Shown here: piece by piece, positions 1 to 16,909 of the stretch
Numbering within the stretch: position 1 is the stretch's first letter
How the letters are laid out: every line of letters begins with the position of its first letter
Source: an uncultured Verrucomicrobiae bacterium
GTDB lineage: Bacteria > Verrucomicrobiota > Verrucomicrobiia > Limisphaerales > UBA11358
DNA length: 64,000 nt
Assembly (NCBI GenBank): GCA_963830235.1
Contig: CAWHLR010000035.1
Location: 29,838 to 93,837, forward strand
Direction: 5' to 3'
Notes under the pieces: model-generated
The model's input: only the letters and a program-made list of their open reading frames with translations
Databases searched by the model: none
Told to the model about the DNA's origin: nothing
Made by a program: the position numbers and the translations under genes

Positions 1-285
1 TACCCTGTCCATTGTGATGCCGATCCTGAACGTGCGGCTTTGCTTTCGCTGAAAAAGCAATTTCGCCACGAGGATAAAGATGAGGATAAAATGACCATCC
101 GCGAAGTTGCGGAATATCTTGCCTGGGAGAAAACCTTTAAAATCGGCGACTCCGTAAAATCTAATTTTCCAAAAGTGGAAACGCCCGCTGATGGCTTTTC
201 AGCTCTGCGGAGAAAATGCCGTGAGATGGATTTTCCATTGGCTCCCTCGAAACGGAAACCGGCTCGGCCCGTCAAATCAAAGTGA
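1..285 (+). CDS. small island protein, 5'-partial; paralog of 543..905
   Basis: The frame is open from base 1; the ORF track starts it at TTG 40. The C-terminal ~45 aa align with 543..905: TIREVAEYL vs TIRQVAQFL, and PADGFSALRRKCREMDFPLAPS vs PADGFSALRRKCREINFPLAPS. Confidence 0.5.
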   Translation, partial: YPVHCDADPERAALLSLKKQFRHEDKDEDKMTIREVAEYLAWEKTFKIGDSVKSNFPKVETPADGFSALRRKCREMDFPLAPSKRKPARPVKSK

Positions 286-500
286 AAAAAGCCAAATCCA
301 AGCCTACTCTGCGAAGCTCGACGGTGAAGCAAATCATCGCCCTTGTCAAAAAGGGTGACAGTTCTGAGGCGGAAATCATTGCCAAATATGGAAGACCCCT
401 TACTTTCGCCGAACGTTTTGCCAGGCATTATTACAATGCTCTCGACGAAGTTCAGGCAGCCGAACGCGGTAAAACGACTTGCCTTCCTTTTCCATCTTAA
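282..500 (+). CDS. hypothetical 72-aa protein
   Basis: The GTG start overlaps the upstream stop (GTGA at 282-285), suggesting translational coupling. No domain recognised. Confidence 0.4.
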   Translation: MKKAKSKPTLRSSTVKQIIALVKKGDSSEAEIIAKYGRPLTFAERFARHYYNALDEVQAAERGKTTCLPFPS

Positions 501-542
501 AGGCACGAATTTGATATTAAATCGTCTGAAGAAGTAAGGGCG

Positions 543-905
543 TTGTGGAAAAAACTTCAAGATAAAGAACGATGCATGGCGGGGATTTTAATAAATGCCA
601 TGAACAGCCACGACAGCGAAATGGTCATGGCTCTCGCCAGAGCGGTTAGTTTTTTCAAGGATAAACGCTATCCGAAGTTTGTCGCCGAAGATCGGGAACG
701 CACCATTTTGCTGGGCATGAAATCACTTATGGAAAGGACGGGCGAAAAACTTACAATCCGGCAGGTCGCGCAATTTCTTTCGATGGATGAATTATCGGCG
801 GGGAAAAAACTTGAAGTTCCGGCGGATGGCTTTTCGGCACTCCGCAGAAAATGCCGTGAGATAAATTTCCCGCTGGCACCATCAAGAAAAATAAGTCGAA
901 CGTAG
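543..905 (+). CDS. small island protein; paralog of 1..285
   Basis: 120-aa ORF sharing the C-terminal PADGFSALRRKCRE-x-FPLAPS block with the first ORF. Confidence 0.5.
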   Translation: MWKKLQDKERCMAGILINAMNSHDSEMVMALARAVSFFKDKRYPKFVAEDRERTILLGMKSLMERTGEKLTIRQVAQFLSMDELSAGKKLEVPADGFSALRRKCREINFPLAPSRKISRT

Positions 906-1001
906 TTCTTCAAATTCTTAAATAAATCAGCAGGCGGGTATTAAGGTCATCAACGTGTAGGGCAACGCAGTTAAACCAGTTGACTCTGCACAGTTGATAC
1001 C

Positions 1002-1235
1002 ATGAGTGAATTAACATCGCAGACCGAGAAACAAAGCCCGCTGGTGACACGTTACGTTGACGCACCCAAGCTGCTTGAAATTCTTTTCGATGAAGCCAGC
1101 CGTCCCAGCCTCCGCTGGATTCGGGACCAACAAAAAGCCAGACGGCTGCCTTTTGCAAAAATTGGCCGTTTAGTTTTTTTTGATCCCATCGCTTGCAAAG
1201 CCGCGCTCGACGCCAAAGGTGCCGGTCGGAGATAA
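1002..1235 (+). CDS. AlpA/excisionase-type helix-turn-helix DNA-binding protein
   Basis: 77 aa. The segment RRLPFAKIGRLVFFDP fits the HTH_17/excisionase pattern. It sits directly upstream of the replication gene, as in P4/PICI-like islands. Confidence 0.6.
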   Translation: MSELTSQTEKQSPLVTRYVDAPKLLEILFDEASRPSLRWIRDQQKARRLPFAKIGRLVFFDPIACKAALDAKGAGRR

Positions 1236-1270
1236 TTTCACCACTTTCTCACCTTCGCCGAGATAAACGG

Positions 1271-2578
1271 ATGAACATTTCCCCATTAGAACCGGCAGGC
1301 CAGAATCCGCTCGCCGTTTTGAGTTTGCAACCGAAACGCGCCGACGCGGTTTATTCGCAGATCGAATGGACGGCCCTTTGCGAGCATCTTCATAATGAAA
1401 ATGACTCTACGCATTTCGTCATGGGATTTCGTGACAACGAAGGGTGCAAAAAATATGTTCGCAGTAAAAAGTTGCCGGTTGGACGGGCAATCTCATGGAG
1501 CTGGGGAAGCATCGCCGGTTCGCCGAAATCCCGTTTGGCCTTTGTCCCCTATTCGGTCAACGCCCAGCAGCAATCGCGTTGGGGCGGGATGGACTTTGAC
1601 GCCCACCAGCCCGACCAGGTTGACAGGGCGCGGGAATTGGCATTTGCCGCTTTCCGGGTATTGTTGAACACTCCCGGTTTTGCCGTGATTCTGGAAACAA
1701 GCGGCAGCGGTGGCTGGCATGTCTGGGCGATCTCGCCGGACTTTCATCCGGCTGGCGAATGGATTCGGGTGCTGAAAACGGTTGCCCTGACCATCGGCAC
1801 AATCATCACCGCCGGCGTCTGCGAAATCTTTCCACCCGATAGTCTGCCGTCTCGTTTCGGCAAAGGAATGCGCGCCCCCGGGAGTTGGAATCCAAGCACG
1901 GATAAATTCAATGAAATCGTCTGGGAAAATTGCCGCACTTCCCTTGAGCCAGTCCTATCGAGGAAGTCAAAAAATACCCCCTTGATTTGCAACGGTTTAG
2001 AAGCTCACTTCCCCGATACAGAGAAAAAAGATTCTTTCTCTCCTCTTTCTTTTTCTAATCCTGTCATCTTGGACCTCCTTCAAAAATATCGGATTGACGT
2101 GTCAAATACTCGTAATGACCAGCTCGCTTCATTAACCGGTGCTGCTTTTCATCAATTAGGCTTCACTATGGCGAGACAAACAGCGCAGGCTCAATTTCAG
2201 CGCAAGTCTGTTTCTACCGAGGCCAGTGAGCAGAAGCACATGGCGAGTTTTGATGATTTGTGGTCCGGGCTCATGGAAAGTTGGGTATCCAGTCTTTCAG
2301 ATTCCGAGCGACAATTTGTTGCCCGGCTGGAAACTGACAAAGAGCGCGATGCGTTTCGGATTGTGCGAAGCTTTGCCCGCAAAGCCGAGCAAGATGGCGC
2401 GGCGGATTTTCCGATTGTGCGCGACAATTTGGCATCCCGGTTGGGCATAACCGGCAAAGGCGCGGCGGGGATTCGGGATAAGCTCGCCCGGTTGTGTGCC
2501 ATTTCCAAGACTGTGGATTATGTCCCGAATAAATCCGCGGCCCGTTTCAAGTGGCTGCTCCCAAAATCATTCAAATGA
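1271..2578 (+). CDS. primase-polymerase (prim-pol) type replication protein
   Basis: ATG 1271 (MNISPLEP) chosen inside ORF 1193..2578. GGMDFDAH (DxD) and ILETSGSGGWHVWAI resemble prim-pol catalytic motifs. The C-terminus looks like a winged helix. The stop overlaps the TerS start (ATGA 2575-2578). Confidence 0.65.
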   Translation: MNISPLEPAGQNPLAVLSLQPKRADAVYSQIEWTALCEHLHNENDSTHFVMGFRDNEGCKKYVRSKKLPVGRAISWSWGSIAGSPKSRLAFVPYSVNAQQQSRWGGMDFDAHQPDQVDRARELAFAAFRVLLNTPGFAVILETSGSGGWHVWAISPDFHPAGEWIRVLKTVALTIGTIITAGVCEIFPPDSLPSRFGKGMRAPGSWNPSTDKFNEIVWENCRTSLEPVLSRKSKNTPLICNGLEAHFPDTEKKDSFSPLSFSNPVILDLLQKYRIDVSNTRNDQLASLTGAAFHQLGFTMARQTAQAQFQRKSVSTEASEQKHMASFDDLWSGLMESWVSSLSDSERQFVARLETDKERDAFRIVRSFARKAEQDGAADFPIVRDNLASRLGITGKGAAGIRDKLARLCAISKTVDYVPNKSAARFKWLLPKSFK

Positions 2579-3183
2579 ATCTCCAAACTGCAAATCACCC
2601 ATTTGAACAACTGCCGCGAGAGTCAAACAAGGCATTCGCCGCGTTCAAGGCATACCTGGACATGGGGCCGGAACGGTCCATAGCTGGCGTTAGCCAGACG
2701 TTAGCCAAATCAATGCCTTTTCTGAAAAGGTGGTCGGTGAAATTTGACTGGCAGGGGCGGGTCGCGGCGTGGGATGCCCATTTTGCCGAATTGGAACGGC
2801 AGGCCATCGAGCGGTTGGCCTGCGAAAAGGCGGTGGAATGGTGGCAATTGCACGAGCCAGCCAAGCGGCAGGCGTGGCTGGAGGCCGAGGAGGCGATTGC
2901 CGACGTTCGGGAGGCACGGCGGCGCTGGCGAGCATCAGGGCGGGTGCCTGGCTTTGAAGGCATGGCGCGGATGCTGGAACTGGCGTTCAAGCTCAAGCAG
3001 TTCGCCGCCGGGATTCCATCGGAGATCAAGGAGGTGCATCAGCACGTCACCGGCACGGTGTCGGTGGAGTGGGAGCAAGCCATCCGCAAAGCCTACGGTC
3101 TACCCGACGATGCGCCGATTGTGGAAGTCGAGCCGGTGGTGCCTCCGGCGAAGCTGGAGGATGGCAAAGGGGGCCAGCCATGA
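2575..3183 (+). CDS. terS: terminase small subunit
   Basis: 202 aa with an N-terminal HTH-like segment (SNKAFAAFKAYLDMGPERSIAGVSQTL) and a coiled-coil middle. It lies immediately upstream of TerL, with an ATGA overlap at 3180-3183. Confidence 0.6.
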   Translation: MNLQTANHPFEQLPRESNKAFAAFKAYLDMGPERSIAGVSQTLAKSMPFLKRWSVKFDWQGRVAAWDAHFAELERQAIERLACEKAVEWWQLHEPAKRQAWLEAEEAIADVREARRRWRASGRVPGFEGMARMLELAFKLKQFAAGIPSEIKEVHQHVTGTVSVEWEQAIRKAYGLPDDAPIVEVEPVVPPAKLEDGKGGQP

Positions 3184-4578
3184 ACGAAGCCGCCGTTTTT
3201 TCCGCCGCCGGCATGAAAGCGGGGTGTCCGCCGTCGCAACTGGTCCGGCTGGTTCACGCCGACGCTTTCCTGCACGAGCGGCAGCTTATGGCCTGTGCTG
3301 CCGCCCGGCTGTGCGACCATGCCGGCGGGCCGACGGCCATCGGTTACGGCGGGGCGCGCGGCGGCGGCAAATCTCATTGGCTGCTGGCACAAATGGGGGT
3401 GGACGATTGCCAGCGCGTCGCCGGCTTGAAATGCCTGCTGCTCCGCAAAGTTGGTAAAGCAAATTTGGAACACTTCGAGGACTTGCGCCGGAAGCTGTTT
3501 AACCGGCTGCCACACGAGTTCTCAGCGTTCCGTGGCATCCTGACGTTTGCCAATGGCTCCCGCATCATTGCCGGCCATTTCCAGAATGAGAAGGATATTG
3601 ATGCCTATCTCGGCCTGGAATACGACATCATCGGGATCGAGGAGGCCACGACGTTGACCAGCCGGAAATACCAGGACATCACGACCTGCTGCCGTAGTTC
3701 AAAACCGAACTGGCGTCCGCGCATCTATTCGACCACCAACCCCGGCGGCGTGGGCCATGCTTGGTATCGGACGAAATTCATCGTGCCATTTCAAGAAAAA
3801 CGCGAGATGGAAACGCGCTTTATCCCCGCCCGTGTCACTGACAATCGCTGGAACAATCCTGATTACGTCCGGGTGCTGGAGGGTTTGACCGGCTGGCAGA
3901 AACGGGCATGGCTGGATGGCGATTGGGATATTGCCGCCGGCCAGTATTTCTGCAACTTTCACCGCGAGGTTCATGTCGTCGAGGATTTCGACGATTCGCG
4001 GGCGGTTGAATGGTTTGCCGCACTGGATTACGGCCATGTGCATTACACCGTCTGCCTGCTCGGGTGTCGGGATGGCGACGGGAACACGTTCGTCGTGGAT
4101 GAACACGCGGAGCGGCTTTGGCTGCCGCAGCGCCACGCGGCGGCGATCAAGGCGATGCTGGCACGGCACAAAATCGGCGACCGGAAACTGGCCGTTCGAG
4201 GATCTCCGCCGGTTCGTGGCCGGCGCGGATGTGTTTTCCCGCCAGGGCGACGGAACCACCGTCGCGCAACAATACGAACGGCAGGGAATCCGGCTGCGCG
4301 CAGCCAACATGGACCGCGTGAATGGCTGGGCGGAAATCTTGCAGCGGTTCGGCGATGTCGAGGCCGGGATTCGCCCGACGCTTTTCATTCACAAGCGGTG
4401 CGGGCGGCTGCTCGAAACGCTGCCGGCGTTGCAACATGATCCGAACCGGCCTGAAGATGTCTTGAAGGTGGATTGCGACGAGGACGGCATTGGCGGCGAC
4501 GATGCGGCGGATGTCCTACGCTACATGGTGGCGACGAAATCGCGGGCGATCACGCAACGAAAGTTGCGGGGGTTGTAG
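3180..4578 (+). CDS. terL: terminase large subunit, interrupted by one frameshift near 4185-4200
   Basis: Walker A-like GGARGGGKS, acidic IGIEEAT, and NPGGVGHAWY. The C-terminal nuclease part (FVAGADVFSRQGDG ... DRVNGWAEIL ... DDAADVLRYM) continues in the frame of ORF 3916..4578. Confidence 0.85.
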
Positions 4579-4591
4579 TGTTTGTTTTCAT

Positions 4592-4637
4592 AGGCAGATT
4601 ATAACACTCGGCGCGTCATTGCGCCCAGCATCTGCCT
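4592..4637 (+). terminator. candidate stem-loop downstream of terL
   Basis: AGGCAGAT (4592-4599) pairs with ATCTGCCT (4630-4637) and encloses an inner GGCGC/GCGCC stem. The T-run at 4649-4653 is distal, so this is not a canonical terminator. Confidence 0.35.
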
Positions 4638-4695
4638 TCTCATCCAATCTTTTTAGGCGTTGCGACTGCGACTTGATCCCGAAAAACGCTACGAC

Positions 4696-4956
4696 CTACT
4701 TAGCAAGAATCAGAACTGTAGATCCCGATCTTAGCATCGTCGATGTTCTTACTTTCCACCCGTCCGCTCCGAGTGTATTCAACTGCGCTTCGAGTTGTTG
4801 CGCTTCCGAAATTTCTTGGCAGTTGATAACTTTGTAATGTTCTCCTCCACTGAGTTCGGCTGCTTGAGTCTGACGAGGCAGAAGCGTGAAGCTGGAAATG
4901 ATGACTGCGATACCAAGTGTTGCAGCAATTAGGATTGCTTTTATTTTTGTTTTCAT
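4696..4956 (-). CDS. membrane-anchored DUF4177-like protein
   Basis: N-terminal hydrophobic segment. The C-terminus YKVINCQEISEAQQLEAQLNTLGADGWKV...VLILAK fits the DUF4177 pattern (YKV...LN.LG.eGWel...). Confidence 0.55.
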   Translation of the reverse strand: MKTKIKAILIAATLGIAVIISSFTLLPRQTQAAELSGGEHYKVINCQEISEAQQLEAQLNTLGADGWKVRTSTMLRSGSTVLILAK

Positions 4957-5330
4957 ATGTTTGGCTTTTTCTGGTTAGTTTTCGTTTTTTTGAGGTTATT
5001 GCGCTGGGCGTGTAGCATACGCCTAACATTGTTATCATGCCACAGAGCATTCCCGACGGCATGCACGGCTGACTTTTCTATCTGTGGCATGTGTCATAGG
5101 GTTATGAAAGCGGACTTGCGAATTACTGTCAAAGATAATTCGCCGGTTGAAATGGAGTCCAGAGGTCGTTGACCTTTGGCGCGGTCTGGTGCGCGTAACA
5201 CTAGCGCCGGGGTTTGGGGACGGCGTGAGTCCCCAACAACATTGGCTGCGCGGCTGACGACCATCAAAGGCGTCAGCCGCGAAAAATTTTGCGCCCGGCG
5301 CGGTGGCGTCGGGTGCAAGTTGTGTGTCGG

Positions 5331-5732
5331 TCAATCTTCGTCCGGCATCATCACGGTGATGGCGGGTTGCGGGTCGTCCATGTCGAGCGGGCCACAAGTG
5401 GCGATCAACTTCACCAGCTTGGCGCGGTGGTTGTCGTTGCGGACATACATGGCGACGGGGATGCGGTCGCAACCTGGGCGGCTGCGGATGATTCCGAAAC
5501 GGGTCATCCAGACAATATCCCAAAGGCGTCCGGCTTCATCCTGACCGGTCACGCCTTCCGGCACGGCGACGTAAGCATCAAAAACCGTGCGGGTCAAAAA
5601 CATCGGGAATTTGATGCCCGCCTCTTGCGCGGTCTTGGTCACGTCAACCTGCACGCCGTCGGCGACGGCTTGTGCGCGGGTGTAGGCGTAAATGACAGGG
5701 CCGAATGGTGATTCTTGGTTGTTTGTGTTCAT
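5331..5732 (-). CDS. conserved small MGE protein of the type I recall from conjugative-element leading/antirestriction regions
   Basis: 133 aa. FGPVIYAYTRAQAVADGVQVDVTKTAQEAGIKFP...DEAGRLWDIVWM matches a family I remember next to ArdC-like genes. This is a recollection only and was not checked against a database. Confidence 0.55.
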   Translation of the reverse strand: MNTNNQESPFGPVIYAYTRAQAVADGVQVDVTKTAQEAGIKFPMFLTRTVFDAYVAVPEGVTGQDEAGRLWDIVWMTRFGIIRSRPGCDRIPVAMYVRNDNHRAKLVKLIATCGPLDMDDPQPAITVMMPDED

Positions 5733-5777
5733 AATCGGGTAAAGGAATGGGGCGGCTTGAACCCGCCCCGGTGTAAA

Positions 5778-6194
5778 TCACGTGGGGCGCACGTCGGCGG
5801 GGAAATAGCTGGAAAACTTCTGGTGCGGGTCGGTCTGGCTGCCCAAACGGAACACTCCGCACGGGTGCTGCCATGCCTGCCGCTCGCGGTTCCAATGGAA
5901 ACCAAGCTGCGCCAACTGCTGCCGCAACTCCGGCGCGGGTGTCTCGCGGAACGCAACCCAAATCCACCTGCCGACAACCTCGGCGAGATTGAACAAACCC
6001 GGATTGCTGGTTTTCAAAAGTTCCAAAACTTTGGTGATAGGCAAGGTGCGGTTTTTCTTCCGCGCCTCGGCATCAATCGGCAAACGATTGTCCGGCTTCT
6101 GCGCTGGCGCTTCCGCTGCTGCGGTGTTGTTACTACTCAACTGTGCGGATCTGCTCCCGAGCCCCTGAACCGATTTTTTGTTATTTGTTTTCAT
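5778..6194 (-). CDS. conserved small MGE protein (GFHWN...WQHPCG C-terminal motif)
   Basis: ATG 6194 (MKTNNKK) chosen inside ORF 5778..6539. EVVGRWIWVAF...LAQLGFHWNRERQAWQHPCG is a motif I recall from ICE/plasmid accessory regions. It forms an operon with 5331..5732. Confidence 0.5.
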   Translation of the reverse strand: MKTNNKKSVQGLGSRSAQLSSNNTAAAEAPAQKPDNRLPIDAEARKKNRTLPITKVLELLKTSNPGLFNLAEVVGRWIWVAFRETPAPELRQQLAQLGFHWNRERQAWQHPCGVFRLGSQTDPHQKFSSYFPADVRPT

Positions 6195-8122
6195 GGTCTT
6201 TTTTTTACTGCTCTGCTGTGCGTCTTCTGTCCGTCGCCCTTCACGAAAAAGCGGAGCCGCCAGCCCTCCCTGCGGAAGGAATCCATAGGAAGGTCGCCGC
6301 GTAGGGCGGGCTGGTATTGCGGTGACGCCGTGAGGGCGATGGAGAGAAACGGTGAGCAGAAAAAACCGGACCTGAAAACTTGGCAGCGCCACTTGCTTTA
6401 GCGCCGCCCCCTGGGGATGGAGGGGGCAAAGGCGCAACGGGGTGGGTGGGGGATTTGGGGAAGCAGACCCGGCTGGTCGTTTCACCTCGGCGCTTGGCGT
6501 GAACGGATGCCTGCGAACTGGCGCGCTGGCTGCCCGCACGAGCGCGAAGGTGCGGATTAGCAGTCAGCGTGACAGTGAAGCAGCGGTGCTGCACACAACG
6601 GCACATTGTGCGACCCTTTATTCCGTGCAGAAGGGCACCCGCGAGCGGGGAGTGTCTGCACGAAAAGAATAAAGGTGTGGAACGAGGAACGAGTGGAACG
6701 AACGCACAATGTGTGTTGTGTGAACCACCGGAAGCAAAGCCGACGCCCAGCCTCGGAACGCAGTGAGAAGCGTAGCGTCGGCTGGTCCTTCATGCCAACT
6801 GCGCCGCCATTGGCCAATCTTTTGCCGGGTCTGCGGTTCTTGCGCCGGTGCGAGCAGCCGCGTCCGCACAGCACGGGCGCTCTGACCTGAAGCGGCAGTC
6901 TGCGACCAATCGTGCAGGCACAGACGCGCAGGAACGAGCATCGTAGCCGAAGCCATTGGTCGCAGTCTGACGCGCCGTTCGTTTGGCGAGTCGCGCCAGC
7001 GCGAGTGCGGCTTGTTCTGACTCCTGAGCGAGTGCTGTTTACGGTCACATGGAGCGCAAGGGCTGCTGCTGCCAGGGTAACAGGGAGCAGCAGGCAGACA
7101 GTGCGCGGAGAGTGACGCTCAGGTGTCAGACCAATTTGGTTTTATCAGTGAGGTCGGACATTCTTCCGGGCGGCGAAATGGAGCGCCAGCGGAGAGTAGC
7201 GTCCGGAAAATGGCCGTGCTCACGGTTAATGCCGATTGTCTTGGCCGGGCGGAGCCTCGCGGCCTATTGCGGTGTCTTGCCCCGTGCGAAGCATCGCGGG
7301 CTATTGCTGGTCCTGGCCGGACGAAGTCTCGCGGCCAACCGGCGCAATCGGATTGCGATATTGCTGGTTCATGTCGGGCGGAGCCTCGCGACATCCTGCT
7401 GGTGTTTCTTGGGTGCGCCCGATCTGAGGCCGGTCTCGTCTGTTTGCGGCCGTCGGAACAAAGCGATAGCGCTCCGCCGGTGCGAGCCGCACCTGCCTTC
7501 GGCGGATCGCGGCAGCGGAGTGGAGCGGTCTGCAAAGCTGGCGAGTCCGGCCAGGGCGCGGGCGGAACAGTGCCGATACTTGCCACGAACGTTTTCGTGG
7601 AAGCGTCGGCTCTGTGAAGCCTGGACTGCTGTTTTGCGCCGCGATAGCGGCGTTGCCAATTTCTTTTCTTCCGCGAAGCGGCCATCTTTTCTTTTCATGC
7701 CTGACCCTCGCGCCCTGAAACCGTTGGAAAACCTGGACGGTTGGATTGCTCAAGAGACATTCGATGAAGATGGGTCGTCCAACGTGCGCGCGAGGGTAGC
7801 CCAAGCGCCGCCGGGGATGACGTAGTAAAACCCGTGAAGGCGGCGCGGTGCCGGCGGGTGGGGCCGGGGATGACGTTGGTGGCATGAGGCGCGTTGGATT
7901 ACCTGAAAACTTTCGCCGAAGCCGATGACAGCCCCACCCGACGTGCATGGGCGTCAGGCATACGCGCGCACGGCCATGACGCTGGCAAATGGATGCCTTT
8001 CGACGTGTGGGCGCATCGTAGGTTGTTGAGCACGCGAATGGAGTGCAGCGCGAACCAAAGTTTCGTTGAGCGAAGCGAACCAACTTTGTCTTTGAAGGAC
8101 GAACGAGGTTGAAGGTTATTAA
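6195..8122. other. ~1.9 kb ORF-free, hairpin-dense GC-rich region; candidate structured RNA, ssDNA element or origin
   Basis: Only R/P/C/G-rich shadow ORFs overlapping in all frames. Multiple long complementary stems, G-tract clusters and tandem repeats (see findings). Confidence 0.5.
7237..7402 (+). repeat. four tandem degenerate ~36-nt hairpin units, with a possible fifth to 7441
   Basis: U1 7237-7272 is TGTCTTGGCCGGGCGGAGCCTCGCGGCCTATTGCGG. U2 7273-7310 is TGTCTTGCCCCGTGCGAAGCATCGCGGGCTATTGCTGG. U3 is 7311-7367 and U4 is 7368-7402. Each unit has a GGCCG..CGGCC-type stem. Confidence 0.6.
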
Positions 8123-10000
8123 TTAATTCTCCTTCAGAAATTCAACCAGGCGGGACATGGATCGCTTCAGGTCTCGCTGCCTTCCTATCTGGACACCTTT
8201 TTTAATCTGAAGGCAAATATGATCGTAATTGGGTCCCTTTAATAGGTCATCATATTGCGAATAAATGTTTTTTGATTTGGGCAGTTGTATCCCCATCAGC
8301 AATTTTGAAATGGAATGTAGCAGAAGAAACGCATCCTCGATCATTTCAAAGGTGATTTCCTCGAACATCTCAACCGCATTATTACCTTTCGTGCAATACC
8401 ACTTTTCACAATAGCTGACGAACCGATTTTCAAACGCATCCTGAAAGGAAAAATCACTTTGAAGTTGGCGGGCAATCAATGCCGCTAACGTCCACTCCGC
8501 CGGCCCCTTGAAATCCTTCTGTTGTTTAATCAGCCGGTCACCGATACCGCGCCATCTGGCTTTACTGTCATAGGATTCCTCGATCATCTTTTTCAACCAG
8601 TAGGCAAATTTGCACCGGTTATGTGATGGGTCTTGGATTTCCGGAAAAATAACCGGGAAATACTTTCCAAAAATATCATTAGTTCCCTGTTGGCTGATGA
8701 ATGGGTTCTGCCTTAATACCGCCGCGATACAACGTGCGAGTTTATCGGCATCAAGCCAAAAATATTTCCGCTTGGCATCTTGTTCCTCTTTGCTGACAAC
8801 CTGTTTTTCACCCTGTTTCCTCAAAAGGTAATATTTTCTTTCAGAATCCTTCAGTTTCTCGGCGAAGAGTCTGTGAAAAAGTGTCACCATCATGGGGTGG
8901 TTTGACTTCAAATCGCGATTATCGACAGGATTTTGATTGTTACGCGCAATGGCGACTTCAGAAGATATATTGGCCGCATCCTTTTTCAGTTCGATGACGG
9001 TAACAAAAACTTGGGCATTGGGATTGGCGCCTTCATTTTCACAAAAGTAGCGGTCAATATTCATTACGGTCTGACAGCCGTTGCTTATGGAGGCTCGTTC
9101 CAAAAAAATATGGTCGTCATTGAGCGTTGCCTTGCTGCATTGCATGGTCACGCCATTATTGCACACGATGAACTGTTCGGGCTTCTGGCTGATGGTCATC
9201 CGGATTGCCTCGGCGATCTCCTTGCTGCGTTTCTTGACGTTTAGGTAACTGCGCACGTTCGAGGCAAAAAGCGCCTTCAACTTCTTTTCCTTCCTGTGGG
9301 CCTGAATAATCTCGTGAATATTTTTTAGAACGACCGAAGTAACAAAAACCTGACCATAGTCGAAGGTCAATTTAAGCGGCGACTCATGGAACTTGAGCTT
9401 GAATGAGCTCATTCCGGTCTGACCATCCAAGAATTCTTCGCCGCGCTCCAGAAGTTCCTCATTTGTAAAAAAGTCATAATCTTCCAGCTTTGCATTTTTT
9501 CGGATGCGTTCACGTTGTGGGCCACTAAAATGTTTTGGCGTCACGAAGTAATACCGTGGCGAGTAATGCTCCTGGGTGATCAGCATCTTTGCCCGCCGCC
9601 ATGCTGACCGTGCCGGTTCATGCAACGCTTCAGGCAGAGAATCTTCAAACAAATACTTATAAAATTGAGCGAATGTTTCGGTAGCTTTCGCCTCGTTGGC
9701 TGGTGATTTATTCCAGTTGCCCGCATCGTATTCGACCTGTCCAACCAAAACTTTTTTGCTTTCTTTATCCTGCCAGATGAAATCAACGCCGCAATCATTC
9801 GCCTCATCAAGCACACATTGATTTGCCTCATCGTAAGGAATGCCGACTTCCTGATGGAGGAACCAAATCGCGAGTGCCTGGGCATCGCCAAGCACCGAAT
9901 TCCCGGATGCACGCCCGGATTGAGTTATGATCCGCTCCAATTCCTCTTTCAGGAACTGGATGAGGTGATCAGTTTCATATTCTTGGCTGGCAAATGACAT
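8123..10000 (-). CDS. AIPR-family abortive-infection protein with an N-terminal nuclease-like domain
   Basis: FIVCNNGVTMQC and ISNGCQTVMNI fit the AIPR pattern. The N-terminus DCGVDFIW...VLVGQVEY resembles a PD-(D/E)xK core. ATG 10000 preferred; alternative start at 10045. GC is markedly lower than the flanks. Confidence 0.8.
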   Translation of the reverse strand: MSFASQEYETDHLIQFLKEELERIITQSGRASGNSVLGDAQALAIWFLHQEVGIPYDEANQCVLDEANDCGVDFIWQDKESKKVLVGQVEYDAGNWNKSPANEAKATETFAQFYKYLFEDSLPEALHEPARSAWRRAKMLITQEHYSPRYYFVTPKHFSGPQRERIRKNAKLEDYDFFTNEELLERGEEFLDGQTGMSSFKLKFHESPLKLTFDYGQVFVTSVVLKNIHEIIQAHRKEKKLKALFASNVRSYLNVKKRSKEIAEAIRMTISQKPEQFIVCNNGVTMQCSKATLNDDHIFLERASISNGCQTVMNIDRYFCENEGANPNAQVFVTVIELKKDAANISSEVAIARNNQNPVDNRDLKSNHPMMVTLFHRLFAEKLKDSERKYYLLRKQGEKQVVSKEEQDAKRKYFWLDADKLARCIAAVLRQNPFISQQGTNDIFGKYFPVIFPEIQDPSHNRCKFAYWLKKMIEESYDSKARWRGIGDRLIKQQKDFKGPAEWTLAALIARQLQSDFSFQDAFENRFVSYCEKWYCTKGNNAVEMFEEITFEMIEDAFLLLHSISKLLMGIQLPKSKNIYSQYDDLLKGPNYDHICLQIKKGVQIGRQRDLKRSMSRLVEFLKEN

Positions 10001-10136
10001 ACAATCAATTTTCTTTCGGTTTTCAGGTTCCCGTCGAAACACCACTCATCTTATTTTGGGATGATTGATTATCGTAAATGTCTGTTTCCACAATACAAAT
10101 AAAATCATTGGGCGAATTTTGAATTGGAAAAATTTT

Positions 10137-10158
10137 GGGGTTGGGGGGGGCAGGGGGG
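10137..10158 (+). repeat. G-tract cluster (G4, G8, G6) between the divergent AIPR and portal genes
   Basis: GGGGTTGGGGGGGGCAGGGGGG read directly from the sequence. Confidence 0.8.
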
Positions 10159-10308
10159 CGAATTTGGTAAAATACTTCTTTCGATCTTCTTGGATATGTG
10201 GAAACAACCGGCGGGAAAATGAAATAACGTGCAACTAAGTGCATAAGTCGTTGACAATCAATATGTAACACTTGACGAAACGCTGGTTGTGGAATAAATA
10301 GGTCTTAA

Positions 10309-11832
10309 ATGCCCGTGCATTCCACACATCCTGATTATGACGCCAGCCTCTCGGCCTGGCTGCGGGCTCGCGATGTCTTTGCCGGTGAGGATGCCATCAA
10401 GGCCGCTGCTGAAAAATATCTGCCGCGTCTGGATTGTCAGGACGACAAGGAATATCTCGCCTACAAAAATCGCGCCTCCTTTTTCAACGCCTCGGCCCGC
10501 ACGGCGGATGGTTTCGTCGGCCTGATTTTTCGCCGTGATCCAACATTCAAACTGCCGGACACCGGCACCGGTGTAGGCGATGCGCTCACCGAATTTGTGG
10601 AAGATGCCGACATGTTGGGAACCAGCCTGACTGCCTTCTCGAAAAAACTGGTCACGGAAATTATCAATGTCGGTCGTGCCTGCACGCTGATTGACTGGAA
10701 CGAGGAAGCGGAGCAACGCGCCTATGCCGTTGCCTATTCCGCTGAAGACATCGTCAATTGGCACACAGAACGGGTAAATGGCCGCAACGTGCTGACGCTG
10801 GTCGTCCTCAAGGAAATCAGCAAAATGCCCGCTTCGGAAACTGATCCGTTCGTGCCTGATGAAATCCAGCAACTTCGCGTTCTGAAACTCGTCCCGCCGC
10901 AAACCAAAGCTGAAAACGCAAAAGCTGACTGGTCTTACCAGGTAGAAATCTGGCAGTTCCTTGCGGATGGCCAGAATGCAAGCGGCCCTCGCAATCGCGG
11001 CAAAAAGAAATGGAAATTGGTGGACTCCTTGACACCGCTGCGCCTGGGCAAACCTCTGCCGCTGATTCCCTTTGTCTTTCATGGTCCGCGTCACTCCTTG
11101 CCGGAAGTGGATAAAATCCCGCTGGCAGACATCATCGCCGTCAACCTCAACCATTACCGGCTCACAGCCGACTATTTGCATGGGATGCATTTCACCGCAT
11201 TGCCGACGGCCTGGGTGAGTGGATTTGACAAAAATTCTTCGCTTCGCATCGGCTCTAGCACGGCATGGGTCGCTGAGACGCCCGGCGCGACGGCTGGTTT
11301 TCTGGAATTTCACGGTCAAGGTCTGACGACCTTTGAACGGGCAATGGATCGTGATGAGCAACTCATGGCGGTGCTCGGCACACGGATGCTCGAATCCAAG
11401 AAGCGCGTTGGGGAGACCGCCGCTGCCATCGAACTCCGCCAGAGCGGTGAGAACAGCATTTTGAACACCGTGTCTTTGAGCATCAGCGCCTCGCTGACGC
11501 AAGTGCTGCGCTGGGTTTATTGGTGGAACTCCACCGAACCGATTCCTGATGCCATTGGTCCCGACCTTGTGCTCGCCAGCCTGAACACGGATTTCAGCAT
11601 CACCGGAATGTCGTTTCAAGAAATTACGGCACTGGTCGCCGCGTGGCAGGCGGGCGCCATTAGTCAGGCAACCATGCTCGACTTATTCCGCGCCGGTGAA
11701 GTTATCGCTCCTGGCCGCACGAATGAAGAAGAAATCAAACTGCTCGCCAGCGAGAAACCAACGAAGCCGCCGGTCGCGGTCAAACCGCCGGTGTCGGTGG
11801 CGACGACTGCAAACCCTCAACCGATAACCTGA
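10309..11832 (+). CDS. portal protein
   Basis: 507 aa, placed directly before the scaffold and capsid genes. Size, position and sequence pattern are consistent with DUF4055-type portals (from memory). Confidence 0.75.
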   Translation: MPVHSTHPDYDASLSAWLRARDVFAGEDAIKAAAEKYLPRLDCQDDKEYLAYKNRASFFNASARTADGFVGLIFRRDPTFKLPDTGTGVGDALTEFVEDADMLGTSLTAFSKKLVTEIINVGRACTLIDWNEEAEQRAYAVAYSAEDIVNWHTERVNGRNVLTLVVLKEISKMPASETDPFVPDEIQQLRVLKLVPPQTKAENAKADWSYQVEIWQFLADGQNASGPRNRGKKKWKLVDSLTPLRLGKPLPLIPFVFHGPRHSLPEVDKIPLADIIAVNLNHYRLTADYLHGMHFTALPTAWVSGFDKNSSLRIGSSTAWVAETPGATAGFLEFHGQGLTTFERAMDRDEQLMAVLGTRMLESKKRVGETAAAIELRQSGENSILNTVSLSISASLTQVLRWVYWWNSTEPIPDAIGPDLVLASLNTDFSITGMSFQEITALVAAWQAGAISQATMLDLFRAGEVIAPGRTNEEEIKLLASEKPTKPPVAVKPPVSVATTANPQPIT

Positions 11833-11841
11833 AACTGATTT

Positions 11842-12603
11842 ATGGCCCTGAAATACAAATACGCAACGAAGCAGGAAATTCCTGCTGAACATCAATCCCT
11901 TTATGTCGAACGCGACGGCGCTTGGATACTGGACGCCGATGGCATCACAGACAAATCCAAGTTGGATGAATTCCGCACGACCAACGTCGCGCTGATGAAA
12001 GAGCGTGATGACCTCGCCAAGAAGTTTGAAGGCATTGACCCGGATGAAGTCCGCCGGCTCGCCGATGAGAATCGTTCCCTGCGGACGGCAACATTGAGCG
12101 AAGACGCCAAGCGCGAAATGGATGCACAGTTGAAAACCACGAAGGCGGGTTATGAAAAGCAACTTACTGCCGTGACTTCTGAACGCGATGCGCTGCATGG
12201 TCGCCTGACGGCGATTCAGATTGATCAAGCCGTCGTGAATGAAGCAACCAAACGTGGTCTGCGCCCGACGGCGATTCCTGACATTACTTCGCGGGCGCGC
12301 ACGAATTTCAAATTAGTGAACGGCGTTCCTCAAGCTTTCGAGGCGGACGGCCAGACGGCCCGGATGGGCAAGGATGGCGTCACGCCGATGACTTTGGCCG
12401 AATGGGTGGATGCGTTGGTGTCCGACGCACCGCACCTGTTTGAAGCAAATGCTGGTGGCGGTGCCGCCGGCTCCGGCTCCGGTGGGGCTGGCAACCGGTC
12501 CGTGAAAAATCCGTTCCGAAAGGAAACGTTCAATCTCACGGAACAAATGAAAATTCAAAAATCCGATCCACAACTTGCGGCTCGCCTCAAGGCGGCTGCG
12601 TAG
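11842..12603 (+). CDS. capsid scaffolding protein
   Basis: 253 aa, charged and coiled-coil-rich, with a Gly-rich C-terminus. Located between portal and MCP. Confidence 0.6.
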   Translation: MALKYKYATKQEIPAEHQSLYVERDGAWILDADGITDKSKLDEFRTTNVALMKERDDLAKKFEGIDPDEVRRLADENRSLRTATLSEDAKREMDAQLKTTKAGYEKQLTAVTSERDALHGRLTAIQIDQAVVNEATKRGLRPTAIPDITSRARTNFKLVNGVPQAFEADGQTARMGKDGVTPMTLAEWVDALVSDAPHLFEANAGGGAAGSGSGGAGNRSVKNPFRKETFNLTEQMKIQKSDPQLAARLKAAA

Positions 12604-12626
12604 GATCACAAGCACAATTCTAAATT

Positions 12627-13637
12627 ATGGCTAAAACACAATTGGCTGACATCGTTGTTCCGGCGCAGTTCGCGCCGTATGTATTACAGCGCACGGCGGA
12701 GAAATCCGACCTGTTTCAATCCGGCATTGTCGTGCGAACGCCGGACTATGACGAACGCGCTGCGCAAGGCGGCAACCAGGTCAACATGCCGCATTGGAAT
12801 GACCTGACGGGCGACCGCCAGCCACTTTCCGATTCGTCACCGCTCGTGCCGGCGAAGCTCACGGCGGATCAGGACATCGCCCGCATCCATAACGACGGCA
12901 AGGCGTGGTCGTGGAATCACCTGGCAACCTTGGTCTCTGGCGATGATCCGGCGCTGGCGCTGGCCAACTTCATGGCCGATTACTGGAATCGTCAGAACCA
13001 ATACATGCTCATTAGCTCCCTGAAGGGTGTGTTCTCGGCGGCTTCGATGGTCGGCAACCTGTTGGCGATTCACAGTGAAAGTGTCGCCGCGCAAACGGCT
13101 GCGACCCGGCTCAACGGTGCAACCTTCGTGGATGCGACGCAAAAGCTTGGCGACCGTGGCGACCGGCTCGTGGCCGTGGCGATGCACTCGGCAACCGAAG
13201 CCGCGTTGCGGAAACTCGATCTGATTGACTTCATCCCGGACAGCCAGGGTGAAGCGCAAATCCGCACGTTCCAGGGCCGGCGCGTCATCGTGGATGACGG
13301 TTGTCCGTCGCGGGCGGGCACGACCGATGGCTTGGTCTATACAAGCTACCTGTTCGGCCCGGGCGCGTTCGGCATGGGCTTCGACGATCTGAACGGCGCG
13401 CCCGTCGAGGGTGGTTTCGGCACGCAAGGCTGCGAAGCGGCGCGTGACGCTCTCAACAGCGATACCAACCTGATCAACCGCCGCCGGTTCATCCTGCATC
13501 CTCGAGGTGTGAAGTTCACCAGCGCGAGCGTGGCGGGCGCAAACCCGACAAACGCGGAATTGGAAACGGCCGCAAATTGGGTGCGCGTTTGGGAAAACAA
13601 AAACGTCCCCGTCGTGGCGGTCACTCACAACATCTAA
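12627..13637 (+). CDS. major capsid protein (HK97-fold; resembles the N4-gp56/T7-like coat family)
   Basis: 336 aa. N-terminus MAKTQLADIVVPAQFAPYV.... Position after the scaffold fits a coat protein. Confidence 0.75.
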   Translation: MAKTQLADIVVPAQFAPYVLQRTAEKSDLFQSGIVVRTPDYDERAAQGGNQVNMPHWNDLTGDRQPLSDSSPLVPAKLTADQDIARIHNDGKAWSWNHLATLVSGDDPALALANFMADYWNRQNQYMLISSLKGVFSAASMVGNLLAIHSESVAAQTAATRLNGATFVDATQKLGDRGDRLVAVAMHSATEAALRKLDLIDFIPDSQGEAQIRTFQGRRVIVDDGCPSRAGTTDGLVYTSYLFGPGAFGMGFDDLNGAPVEGGFGTQGCEAARDALNSDTNLINRRRFILHPRGVKFTSASVAGANPTNAELETAANWVRVWENKNVPVVAVTHNI

Positions 13638-13688
13638 ACCAAAGGCGTGCCGGTTCGCGCCGGCACGCCACTTTTGAGAAAGAAATTT

Positions 13689-13916
13689 ATGGGCAAACTT
13701 CAACCTCGTAGTTTTGAGCGGATTCGTTCGGGTGAACAAATCCAGTATCCGACATACACCAACGTCGCGGCGGCGGTGGCCGCTGGTGTCACGGCGGCGA
13801 AGTTCCCGCGCCGCATCATTTACCTGTCTGCCGGCGGCACTGGTTCGGTTCCGTGCCTGGCCGTTTCGGACGGCACGAACTGGAAACAAGTCGCCATTGG
13901 CGCAAACGCCATTTAA
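13689..13916 (+). CDS. small head-module protein, hypothetical
   Basis: ATG 13689 inside ORF 13647..13916. 75 aa, co-oriented and directly after the MCP. Confidence 0.45.
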   Translation: MGKLQPRSFERIRSGEQIQYPTYTNVAAAVAAGVTAAKFPRRIIYLSAGGTGSVPCLAVSDGTNWKQVAIGANAI

Positions 13917-13927
13917 CCGCAGCCATC

Positions 13928-14128
13928 ATGGACAAATTGTTTCCCATTATACGGCGGCAGCGGCGTCCTCTGATTGTCGAGGAGTCCGTGCCGGACGGGC
14001 CAACAGCACCGCCTATTCCGATCAAGACCGAGCCGGTTCAATCCGTGATGACAACGCCACCGGTTGAACCGGCGGATGAACCAAAAGCCGACAATGCCAA
14101 AAGCATTTCCACAAGAAAAGCGCGGTAA
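13928..14128 (+). CDS. Pro-rich 66-aa hypothetical protein
   Basis: ATG 13928 inside ORF 13853..14128. Low-complexity sequence. It overlaps the next ORF, so coding status is uncertain. Confidence 0.3.
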   Translation: MDKLFPIIRRQRRPLIVEESVPDGPTAPPIPIKTEPVQSVMTTPPVEPADEPKADNAKSISTRKAR

Positions 14129-15008
14129 CTCACCCTGGACGCCACTGCAACGGCGCACTTGGCTGGCGGAACGTCGCCGCCGCTCGCGGCAAAATCATTT
14201 GCTGCCCGCGCCGGTGCTGGTGGCGGCTTTTCCCGACCTCGCGGTGTGGACGTGGGATTATCCCGACCCGGCTTACTGGTATGCCTATCATCAGCACGCG
14301 GTGGGCGATCCTTTTACTTACGACGACCGTGGCGCTGGGACTGACCGCCAGTATGCGCCGGACGGCGGGCAGTATCCGATGTTCATTGTTGGGTGTGATA
14401 ACGACGGGAACGAGATCACGGGGCGGAGCAATGCGGTTCGTCCTGAAGATGCGCTACCACCTGCCCCTGTCTTAGTTTCGCTGGGAACGGTCGCCGGCGA
14501 TACTACCTGGCGGGCAGTCGCCCCGATAGCTGTGGATGATTGGCAATTTTGCACGACAGATAATGCTTTTGACCCTCAAATTAAAAGTTTTGATCAATGG
14601 GTGTATGAGGCGGACGCGCCGGACACAGATTTCGTCAATATAAATTCCACGACTGCCACCGTCACAGTGGACTTTGCTTATTGCGCTGCCCGCTATCGGG
14701 TCGGGGCAATCTGGTCGTCTTGGACGGGAGTCTTCGATGCAACTGTGATCGCGCCGCCGACACAGTTGGTTTTATCCTCGGATGGCCACGGGCATTTGAC
14801 CTGGACCTGCAACTTCATCGTGGACACGGCCTTCATCATCCAGCATTCGGAAGATGAGGTCAATTGGAGCGATTACGATGCGCAGGACTGCGACAAATTT
14901 TATCGGGACTCCAGCGGATATGCGGGTTTCTACCGACTCGCGATTGGGGATGATGATGGAAACGCCGCGCCGCCCTACTCGAATGCGGTGTATTCGGATG
15001 GTTTGTAA
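14064..15008 (+). CDS. hypothetical structural protein; possible Ig/FN3-like decoration protein; start uncertain
   Basis: 314-aa ORF with a repeated PAPVLV segment and beta-rich W/Y/D composition, in the head module. No motif recognised. Confidence 0.45.
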   Translation: MNRRMNQKPTMPKAFPQEKRGNSPWTPLQRRTWLAERRRRSRQNHLLPAPVLVAAFPDLAVWTWDYPDPAYWYAYHQHAVGDPFTYDDRGAGTDRQYAPDGGQYPMFIVGCDNDGNEITGRSNAVRPEDALPPAPVLVSLGTVAGDTTWRAVAPIAVDDWQFCTTDNAFDPQIKSFDQWVYEADAPDTDFVNINSTTATVTVDFAYCAARYRVGAIWSSWTGVFDATVIAPPTQLVLSSDGHGHLTWTCNFIVDTAFIIQHSEDEVNWSDYDAQDCDKFYRDSSGYAGFYRLAIGDDDGNAAPPYSNAVYSDGL

Positions 15009-15013
15009 TTTTT

Positions 15014-15568
15014 ATGGCGCTCACCTTGATCAAAGAGGACGGGACCGGCAAGGCCGACGCCAACGCATACGCGGACGTGGCCGATGGTGACGCCTACCAC
15101 GCCGGGCATCTGTATGCCACGGCGTGGACCGGCGCGAGCGCGGATCAAAAGGCCGTGGCATTGGTGATGGCGTCGCGGTTGATTGACGCGGAATTTCAAT
15201 TCAACGGCACGCGGACCACGGCCGGACAAAGCCTGCAATGGCCGCGGGCGATGTGCCCCGAGCCGGACAATGTCCATGTGCCGATCTCGGTGCTGTTGCC
15301 GATTCCGTATGAATACGTTGAATATGACAAGGTGCCGAAAGCCGTCGTCCAGGCGACGTGTGAAATGGCGCGGGAACTTTTGATTGCCGACAGGACGGTC
15401 GCCCCAGCGGGTGAAGGCTTGAAATACCAGAACGCCGGCACGACGCAGACGGGTTACGACAAAACCGACCGGCGCCCGGTGCTTTCACAAGTCGCGCAAG
15501 TGATGCTGGCGAAATTTGGATCCCAAATCAGCGCCAAAAGCGGCGCGGTGCGACTGGTGCGGGCGTGA
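15014..15568 (+). CDS. head-tail adaptor (DnaT-like / gp6-like family)
   Basis: 184 aa. N-terminus MALTLIKEDGTGKADANAYADVADGDAYH... fits the DnaT_2-type phage adaptor pattern. It is the last co-oriented gene of the module. Confidence 0.55.
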   Translation: MALTLIKEDGTGKADANAYADVADGDAYHAGHLYATAWTGASADQKAVALVMASRLIDAEFQFNGTRTTAGQSLQWPRAMCPEPDNVHVPISVLLPIPYEYVEYDKVPKAVVQATCEMARELLIADRTVAPAGEGLKYQNAGTTQTGYDKTDRRPVLSQVAQVMLAKFGSQISAKSGAVRLVRA

Positions 15569-16578: not shown

Positions 16579-16909
16579 GGCGATTTTGGGCTATAAATCC
16601 GTGAGTGCAAACGACTATGGAATTATTATTCTTGTCAAAAAACCAAAAAACCCTCGCACCGCCTTTTGCGCAAAATTCCCAAAGCGGTTTGGCCTGTTTT
16701 CCGTGTAGAGGTTTTGTTTTTTGTCCATTTGGCACTATCCCGTGTTTCTTTGCTCTATCAAATAATGCAATTAATTGGTTATAATCTTCAGCACGAGTCA
16801 CGTCGATCTCTTCCAAAAACGATTCCACATCATACTTCGGCTGGTCGCAATCCATGAACAGCAATCTGATTGCGTTTCCACCGTCACCTGTATATTCGAC
16901 CAGTTTCAC
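16487..16909 (-). CDS. HigB/Gp49-like (RelE superfamily) toxin
   Basis: RVFWFFDKNNNSIVVCTHGFIAQNRHDHKKDIERAQERRELYY fits the Gp49/HigB pattern. Confidence 0.65.
   Translation of the reverse strand: MKLVEYTGDGGNAIRLLFMDCDQPKYDVESFLEEIDVTRAEDYNQLIALFDRAKKHGIVPNGQKTKPLHGKQAKPLWEFCAKGGARVFWFFDKNNNSIVVCTHGFIAQNRHDHKKDIERAQERRELYYHSQPRTGAAASR

Follow-up and report, generated by a model that had tools for sequence, protein, structure and literature searches.

Phage-inducible chromosomal islands of the capsid-forming kind (cf-PICIs), such as EcCIEDL933, release tail-less, DNA-filled capsids that are then joined to the tails of various phages. They have been reported from Proteobacteria and Firmicutes, with a median size of 14 kb, and a typical member has about 14-15 kb and a small T=4 capsid (de Sousa et al. 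2023, PMC10085698; He et al. 2025, bioRxiv 10.1101/2025.02.11.637232). Here, we analyzed a 64,000-nt stretch of DNA from an uncultured Verrucomicrobiae bacterium (assembly GCA_963830235.1, contig CAWHLR010000035.1, positions 29,838 to 93,837; hereafter, the window), of which the first 30,377 nt are taken up by an element with phage head and packaging genes. An earlier note, made from the letters of this stretch, had proposed that the element could be a satellite analogous to cf-PICIs, with a prophage whose tail half was replaced by a defense island as the alternative. We found that it belongs to a large and abundant family, for which no earlier description was found, and whose members carry a head and packaging gene set without neck closure, tail, or lysis genes, along with two exchangeable accessory bays. 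The reading we favor, with a probability of roughly 0.6, is that the window element is a capsid-forming, tail-dependent satellite that originated independently from cf-PICIs. No published report of capsid-forming satellites in Verrucomicrobiota or other phyla of the Planctomycetes-Verrucomicrobia-Chlamydiae group was found in a literature search of which one query was poorly targeted.

The element and the cf-PICIs have in common, in one direction, an integrase (predicted from relatives for the window element), an AlpA-type regulator and a primase or replicase (both putative in the window element), the small (TerS) and large (TerL) terminase subunits, portal, capsid, and head-tail adaptor; both lack tail and lysis genes and contain accessory genes, and in both, the arm with integrase, regulator, and replication genes is also found in capsid-less islands. 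Unlike the cf-PICI heads, which are of the HK97 type with a prohead protease and an HNH nuclease, the window head is of the SPP1 gp13 type; no prohead protease match was obtained in the window, a scaffold protein (phrog_206) being found in its place, and none of the open reading frames (ORFs) of the element gave an HNH match with Pfam or PHROG profiles. Moreover, the adaptor is not accompanied by a head-closure or second connector gene, the element has about 32 kb (at least 30.4 kb from position 1 to attR) as opposed to a median of 14 kb, it includes two large bays with about 20 kb of mostly defense genes, and its host belongs to the phylum Verrucomicrobiota. By their functional definition, cf-PICIs are induced by a helper phage and move between cells in capsids of their own to which helper tails are joined, whereas the window element is known from its genes alone. 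When compared with the SatelliteFinder definition of cf-PICIs (PMC10085698), the element was found to have TerS and TerL, portal and major capsid protein (MCP), a head-tail adaptor, and no tail or holin genes, while prohead protease or HK97-type maturation, HNH nuclease, and a second head-tail connector were missing. By function, it would score about 8 on the 11-component definition, for which the threshold is 9, and it was therefore not counted as a cf-PICI member.

Other described systems share smaller parts of this organization. Classical PICIs and Staphylococcus aureus pathogenicity islands have no TerL, portal, or capsid genes and remodel the capsids of their helpers; the window element resembles them in the predicted integrase, the putative AlpA or repressor gene, the putative pri-rep module, TerS, and site-specific integration, but encodes a full head. 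The resemblance to SPP1-like siphoviruses lies in a homologous capsid protein, the scaffold, and the order terminase, portal, scaffold, capsid, and adaptor. These phages go on with a stopper, a tail completion protein, tube, tape measure, baseplate, and lysis genes, whereas the head module of the family stops at the adaptor. Gene transfer agents (GTAs) of the RcGTA type are also phage-derived head and packaging genes in a bacterial chromosome, but they encode tails and package host DNA, lack integrases and att sites, and are inherited vertically as single copies; the family studied here is multi-copy, att-bounded, and mosaic. Finally, the marine virion-encapsidated integrative mobile elements, some of which are from Verrucomicrobia, are likewise integrase-bearing, phage-parasitic islands with AlpA, primase/helicase, and TerS, but have no more than 16.8 kb and no MCP, and end up as concatemers inside the capsids of their helpers (Eppley et al. 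2022, PMC9618062).

Gene content was established with a six-frame ORF map and Pfam and PHROG profile searches. The family was delimited by a capsid-protein scan of species-representative genomes, which gave 115 relatives, and about a dozen IMG/VR contigs were added. Among these about 130 relatives, of which the best 80 of the 115 and the IMG/VR contigs were examined, none had a tail module, and the comparison with related genomes suggested in the earlier note thus favored its satellite reading. The best 80 have an MCP 63-93% identical to that of the window and come from about 55 assemblies, nearly all from Verrucomicrobiota (subdivision 3/Limisphaerales and others), with up to four distinct family contigs per metagenome-assembled genome (MAG). 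The order TerS, TerL, a bay with DUF6573, a 253-aa ORF, and variable genes, followed by portal, scaffold, capsid, a 75-aa protein, a variable decoration protein, and the adaptor Ad1, is kept family-wide. After Ad1, two arrangements were observed. The first has genes for a small coiled-coil protein with a transmembrane segment, for a lipoprotein, and for a small helix-turn-helix (HTH) protein, followed by an inward-facing tyrosine integrase (PF00589), which was found 1.5-2.5 kb after Ad1 in at least 15 loci. The second, which is that of the window, has a long defense bay there and its integrase at the left end. Among the 83 representatives of co-oriented ORF clusters within 6 kb after Ad1, no tube, tape-measure, sheath, or baseplate family was detected, and one gave a "tail protein" PHROG match, which was fiber-like; nor was any connector family among the 25 PHROG families listed for this region. 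As a positive control, the nearest tailed relatives (L093 and L096, the L numbers being labels of relatives' contigs; MCP 56-63% and scaffold 33-39% identical) carry, immediately after Ad1, genes for Hc1 and Neck1/Tc1, followed by those for a tail terminator, another tail protein, and a chaperone of the tail. In agreement with the earlier note, the profile searches found no tail or lysis (holin) gene in the 64 kb of the window. The head and packaging genes are under purifying selection: when the window was compared with its relatives, TerL, portal, scaffold, MCP, and Ad1 had dN/dS values of 0.08-0.2 (portal, about 0.09-0.14; MCP, 0.08-0.19), and the medians for head and packaging genes were 0.10-0.21 at a dS of about 1.

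Next, the boundaries of the element were located. When the tRNA-Pro genes of relatives were searched against the window with blastn, a single match was obtained, here named attR (Table 1), which is unique in the window even at up to 3 mismatches, with 0 matches expected by chance. The chromosomal trmB starts 12 nt after it, and ordinary chromosomal genes follow. Neither a second copy of the att core nor an integrase homologue was found in the window, and therefore, positions 1-30377 were taken as one att-bounded unit, of about 32 kb once the integrase is counted; two islands integrated in tandem were rejected on the same grounds. Given the position of attR, the 14.8-kb defense stretch is cargo inside the element. 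Thus, the head module does end at 15568, as the earlier note had it, but the element runs on to attR with the toxin-antitoxin and defense genes inside, twice the length noted. For the left side, contigs of relatives that share this arm were compared. At 0.3-0.7 kb upstream of the opening small ORFs, they encode a same-strand tyrosine integrase of 420 aa, and a tRNA-Pro lies another 60-140 nt upstream of the integrase; one of these contigs, L142, has 91% DNA identity to window positions 1-1296. The order on single contigs is tRNA-Pro, tyrosine integrase, small ORFs, AlpA, replication genes, TerS, and TerL, and tRNA-Pro, integrase, and AlpA stand together on L137, L143, L146, and L148. The leftward extension suggested earlier, made here through these contigs, met an integrase and a tRNA and not tails, and by this comparison the integrase and attL of the window element are predicted to lie just left of position 1. 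In the closest relative, IMG/VR contig 3300037107_000172 (TerS 96% and TerL 98% identical), an integrase at the contig end is followed by AlpA, the primase-polymerase (prim-pol), terminases, head genes, and Ad1, and then by a different, Hma-like defense set of 14.2 kb, whose minus-strand genes are of the kinds found in the window but only 23-34% identical; its att core is 30.4 kb from its integrase. Collectively, the family-wide lack of tails, the att site, and the purifying selection support the satellite reading of the earlier note, with helper dependence by analogy only.

The features of the element are collected in Table 1. The co-oriented order of TerS, TerL, portal, scaffold, MCP, and Ad1 given in the earlier note was recovered with PHROG and Pfam, except that TerL is split by a 1-nt insertion, and the ATGA overlaps between prim-pol and TerS (2575-2578) and between TerS and TerL (3180-3183) are present in the sequence as described. 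The MCP is 43% identical to SPP1 gp13 and up to 51% to other siphovirus coat proteins, and Ad1 is 49-94% identical in relatives. The three ORFs between MCP and Ad1, previously listed as small head-module ORFs, encode proteins of 75, 66, and 314 aa. For the last one, an AlphaFold model with a predicted local distance difference test score (pLDDT) of 87.7 showed an N-terminal helix and three FN3/Ig-like domains, and Foldseek retrieved generic FN3 arrays only. Among its homologues, the C-terminal domains are swapped, Laminin_G_3 and fn3 being two of them, as in surface decoration or fiber proteins, and the product is thus probably a virion surface protein, either a head decoration or a fiber, its position in the module allowing a guess in favor of the former. 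For the 75-aa protein, public protein and metagenome data contain at least 735 clusters of homologues (90% identity), of which the 120 best listed are 84-96% identical; the protein gave no family match and no confident fold (structure model pLDDT 64). This protein is encoded directly after the capsid gene and is more conserved than the capsid protein. Gene calls of the 75-aa and 66-aa sizes were also present in L214 and L215, and a role of these two proteins in head completion or as cement is a guess. None of the three products was found to be a tail part, and the structure check on 13689-15568 that had been suggested gave an FN3-repeat surface protein and Ad1. No match for a head closure of the Hc1 type was obtained in the window.

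Table 1. Features of the window element. Positions are counted from the first letter of the window.
Feature	Position	Strand	Evidence or remark
sH1	40-285	+	small ORF, no Pfam/PHROG match
72-aa ORF	282-500	+	no Pfam/PHROG match
sH2	543-905	+	small ORF, no Pfam/PHROG match
AlpA-like small DNA-binding protein (putative), 77 aa	1002-1235	+	position and motif only
Replication protein, putative divergent AEP-type prim-pol with C-terminal winged-helix region, 435 aa	1271-2578	+	weak PHROG match and motifs
TerS	2575-3183	+	phrog_6299, E 7.5e-18
TerL	3180-4578	+	phrog_979, E 9.7e-26; Terminase_6N; frameshifted
Cargo bay 1	4579-10308	mostly -	between TerL and portal
86-aa secreted protein	4696-4956		bay 1
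DUF6573	5331-5732	-	Pfam 6.2e-22; family-conserved
253-aa ORF	5778-6539	-	family-conserved
ORF-poor stretch	6540-8122		bay 1
Hairpin repeat array	7243-7393	+	four 22-nt units, in ORF-poor stretch
AIPR/AbiU-like abortive-infection gene	8123-10045		Pfam AIPR 6.4e-32; PADLOC AbiU 1.1e-29; low GC, 0.46
Portal	10309-11832	+	phrog_145, 2.5e-115; DUF4055, 4.4e-37
Scaffold	11842-12603	+	phrog_206, 1.8e-41
MCP, SPP1 gp13 type	12627-13637	+	phrog_247, 6e-95; Pfam Gp13-like
75-aa protein	13689-13916	+	conserved head-module gene
66-aa protein	13928-14128	+	conserved head-module gene
314-aa triple-FN3 protein	14064-15008	+	AlphaFold model
Head-tail adaptor Ad1	15014-15568	+	phrog_477, 4.1e-33; DnaT_2, 3e-25; last head-module gene
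SecB-like chaperone	15633-16097	-	in-frame stop at 15963-15965
HigA-like HTH antitoxin	16072-16578	-	Pfam
HigB/Gp49-like toxin	16487-16909	-	Pfam
ImmA/IrrE protease	17063-17689	-	Pfam; PADLOC capP-like match
HTH_3 protein	17699-18076	-	Pfam
Hma (helicase-methylase-ATPase) system with AbiL pair inserted	18162-29574	-	PADLOC, Pfam
HmaC/DUF499	18162-20690	-	many frameshifts
HmaB methylase	20690-23941	-	intact; PADLOC 1695 bits
AbiLii	23948-24625	-	between HmaB and HmaA
AbiLi	24622-25824	-	PADLOC 7.5e-59
HmaA SNF2 helicase	25998-27551 + 27490-29574	-	two ORFs
attR	30352-30377	+	perfect match to the 3'-terminal 26 nt of tRNA-Pro, GAGTTCGAATCTCACCGCCCCGACCA, then TTT; right end of element

Because of the likeness to cf-PICIs, dependence on a helper, induction, and the theft of tails would be expected for these elements, and a life cycle can be proposed on this analogy. 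A helper phage or a stress signal would lead to excision by the integrase and the AlpA-like protein, and the prim-pol would replicate the element. The element's terminase would then fill the capsids that the element has built, and that Ad1 caps, with element DNA, while a siphovirus-type helper would contribute the remaining neck proteins, the tail, and lysis. In this way, the element could carry its defense cargo from cell to cell. Several observations weigh against this proposal. Induction, packaging, and tail acquisition are predicted here from genes alone, and no helper was identified; the size of about 32 kb, around twice the cf-PICI median, is close to that of a small phage; and TerL is frameshifted in the window copy. 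The integrase and attL are outside the window and were placed from relatives, and the AlpA-like ORF and the prim-pol gave no significant profile matches. Moreover, since no Hc1 head-closure protein was found in the window, the retention of DNA in tail-less heads is unexplained. Lastly, a few distant relatives have after Ad1 a tail-fiber-like protein with an Mtd_N N-terminal domain and a long C-terminal region, which may be a fiber on the head or the adaptor.

A real possibility, to which we give somewhat less than even odds, is that the window copy is a dead relic of a tail-less family, i.e., a chromosomal island with defense genes that no longer packages its DNA or moves. Alignment with L015, L024, and L026 located in TerL an extra C at 4192-4193 (GGCCG in the window versus GG-CG in relatives), a +1 frameshift in comparison with intact homologues that are 89-98% identical. 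As a result, the N-terminal ATPase half can be read up to about 4190, after which a different frame encodes the nuclease half as far as 4578; TerL is intact in L081/L095 and in the closest relative, at 97-98% identity. The cargo genes point in the same direction: a substitution, as opposed to an indel artefact, has put a stop codon into the frame of the SecB-like gene, HmaA is split so that positions 2-676 and 677-1171 of the PADLOC model fall on two ORFs, and HmaC has about 17 single-base insertions in comparison with an intact 943-aa homologue in L090 (86% DNA identity). The insertion sites are not in homopolymers, and the large chromosomal ORFs to the right of attR are intact, indicating that the assembly is not generally error-ridden. 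Hence, the window copy, in which TerL is frameshifted and several cargo genes are broken, looks partly decayed and may have lost the capacity to package DNA. However, the remaining head and replication genes are all intact, and the TerL stretch past the shift still has a dN/dS of 0.095, suggesting that the change is very recent or an assembly error. The latter may apply to the single-base changes of the window copy, as MAGs of like source show frameshifts typical of long-read assemblies, e.g., L026, and the insertions in HmaC go in one direction; such an almost purely insertional pattern is odd for natural decay and could point to a consensus artefact.

The remaining alternatives concern the family as a whole. 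An autonomous particle-forming element without a phage tail, either a domesticated GTA or a virus that delivers its DNA by an FN3 fiber or membrane proteins, was judged very unlikely. The lack of an identified helper and of a head-closure gene would fit such an element, as would the transmembrane coiled-coil protein and the lipoprotein after Ad1 in many relatives, the protein with the Mtd_N fiber domain in few of them, and the great abundance of the family, with several copies per genome. However, integrases, att sites, variable and mosaic cargo, and multiple divergent copies per genome are the marks of selfish mobile elements, and for this reason a domesticated GTA is unlikely; in addition, Ad1 has no known role other than joining neck and tail, and we know of no tail-less portal-bearing capsid that delivers DNA. 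We hold it to be even less probable that the element is what is left of an ordinary temperate phage with a tail, its tail and lysis half having been deleted or exchanged for a defense island. Although the head module is homologous to that of tailed siphoviruses, L093 and L096 with their necks and tails among them, and the defense stretch stands in place of a tail module and is roughly as long, the tail-less state is common to about 130 diverged relatives under purifying selection, relatives carry different cargo after Ad1 or the integrase within 2.5 kb, and the defense stretch is inside the att sites in both the window and its closest relative. A tail was absent from every examined relative whose MCP exceeds 63% identity. 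At the family level, a one-off prophage truncation is thus largely refuted, and with it the replacement of a tail half that had been offered as the alternative. The least credible reading is that of a complete phage with tail genes too divergent to be recognized among the unannotated ORFs. The 75-aa and 66-aa proteins, the ORF-poor stretch at 6540-8122, and the small left-arm ORFs gave no matches, but what is left unassigned has far too little coding capacity for a tube, a tape measure, and a baseplate; the cargo bays are on the opposite strand, recognizably of defense type, and differ between relatives with heads more than 90% identical, and the PHROG profiles do find neck and tail genes in the nearest tailed relatives.

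If the window element is indeed a capsid-forming, tail-dependent satellite, the lifestyle of building heads and stealing tails would have arisen independently from an SPP1-type head that uses a scaffold, and in a distant phylum, common in peat, soil, and freshwater, that is for the most part uncultured. It would also mean that the capsid-forming satellite lifestyle works at twice the usual genome size and that about 20 kb of mostly defense genes are portable in two exchangeable bays. Virus-detection pipelines probably count these elements as ordinary proviruses, and several relatives are already in IMG/VR. With the family, a concrete set of elements and att sites becomes available for the search for helper phages and tail-less capsids in environmental viromes.

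The left arm opens with three small ORFs, of which sH1 and sH2 are paralogues with a common C-terminal half, reflected in a 78-nt direct repeat (171-248 and 806-883, 77% identical). The same trio with the 72-aa ORF is found between integrase and AlpA in L142 and L138. Three sH1/sH2-like copies were seen between integrase and AlpA in relatives of the L142 type. The AlpA-like ORF gave no match with Pfam, PHROG, or PDB profiles, the alignment search against PDB sequences returning noise; thus, the name given earlier is not backed by a profile, while the position next to the integrase is conserved, the protein being kept at 46-95% identity directly downstream of the tyrosine integrase in dozens of contigs. 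From its sequence and position, it is a putative excision or induction regulator. For the neighboring ORF, previously called a prim-pol, no significant match was obtained either, but one weak PHROG match (phrog_21866 primase, E 9.4e-4), sub-threshold LigD_Prim-Pol matches at residues 101-165 in 28/32 homologues, and DFD (DxD) and SGSGGWH (SGxGGWH) motifs invariant in the homologues were found. Alignment against PDB sequences gave noise only, and the comparison of its profile with the Pfam-confirmed Prim-Pol protein of a relative was negative. With modest confidence, we regard the product as a divergent replication protein of the archaeo-eukaryotic primase (AEP) type, which is likely to be the functional counterpart of the cf-PICI primase-replicase. 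An identical protein, P0223, is encoded on a JGI contig, and a 2.35-kb contig matches window positions 336-2685 at 99.7% identity; queries for exact copies of the portal, capsid, and TerS proteins returned no source contig. The replication modules upstream of TerS are swapped among family members, with a prim-pol plus a D5-type helicase, a DEAD helicase plus a toprim protein, or a RecA-like ATPase as the alternatives.

The stretch between TerL and portal had been listed as cargo. This holds for the AIPR/AbiU-like gene, which is in the window copy only and has no counterpart in the relatives compared, but not for DUF6573, the 253-aa ORF, and the hairpin array, which are family-conserved. DUF6573 and the 253-aa ORF recur in most relatives and are followed by 2-3 kb of variable, mainly minus-strand genes, and judging from these comparisons, the stretch appears to be a conserved architectural feature and not random cargo. 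Each unit of the hairpin array is made up of an outer stem of 5 bp and an inner one of 3 bp, with a G(A/G)A loop and a TCG bulge that is constant, around a core of the GCGAAGC mini-hairpin type, and it is surrounded by conserved non-coding flanks (about 7183-7480). Arrays of 2-5 units were found at the equivalent position in about 30 relatives. With 24 distinct units, the covariation score was 0.378 versus 0.124 in shuffles, 0/500 shuffles reaching the observed value, and 85% of the stem cells were paired versus 69% in shuffles. The Rfam search of window positions 1-31000 gave no match, the array included. It is a candidate packaging, replication, or regulatory signal.

In both bays, most of the accessory genes that can be named are defense genes. 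The bay after Ad1 opens with HigB, HigA, and SecB-like genes that form a tripartite toxin-antitoxin-chaperone set, and the GC content in 15633-18076 is 0.47. The ImmA/IrrE protease and the HTH_3 protein make up a pair of the CapP/CapH-like or ImmA/ImmR-like kind, which could regulate the adjacent defense genes or the induction of the element; with this minus-strand pair at 17063-18076, the earlier statement that CI/Cro-like genes are absent was too strong. Between the start of HmaA and attR (29575-30351, about 780 nt), no ORF of at least 150 aa was seen, and one possible small minus-strand ORF was noted by eye at about 29834-30040.

The same integrase and AlpA were also found on att-bounded islands of 9-10 kb at tRNA-Pro in which head genes were not detected (L164, 1218-11562; L165, 7977-18652). 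In the latter, which is a tandem array, an internal att copy is immediately followed by a second integrase. In L153, where head genes were not detected either, integrase, AlpA, and prim-pol are followed by an att core about 1.3 kb behind the prim-pol, and the islands L156-L159 have integrase, AlpA, and prim-pol, with no head genes detected, and carry the hairpin array in inverted orientation. By analogy, an integrase and AlpA held in common with capsid-less islands would mirror the relationship between PICIs and cf-PICIs. A 10.3-kb viral contig, L228, has att cores at both ends. As the smaller islands share the integrase and AlpA, some of them the prim-pol, and L156-L159 the hairpin array, one may speculate about a three-level parasitic chain in Verrucomicrobiota, in which tailed helpers would supply tails to the 30-kb elements, these would supply full-size capsids and packaging, and the smaller tRNA-Pro islands would ride in the capsids of the 30-kb elements, the hairpin array being a shared packaging or replication signal. 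We consider this chain unlikely.

Some further observations were made on individual relatives. In L030, L033, L049, and L068 (MCP 64-66% identical), a 158-aa protein and a protein of 200-390 aa are encoded directly after Ad1, the larger one being that with the Mtd_N domain. Nine elements (L013, L022, L024, L035, L039, L064, L065, L069, and L017) are from co-assembly bins labelled as Bifidobacteriaceae, Bifidobacterium, Hyphomicrobiales, or Vicinamibacterales; their MCPs are 64-90% identical to those from Verrucomicrobiota, and the bin labels look unreliable. L060 contains at 3042-9528 two family members arranged tail-to-tail and inverted, each with its own Ad1-proximal genes and with an integrase between them.

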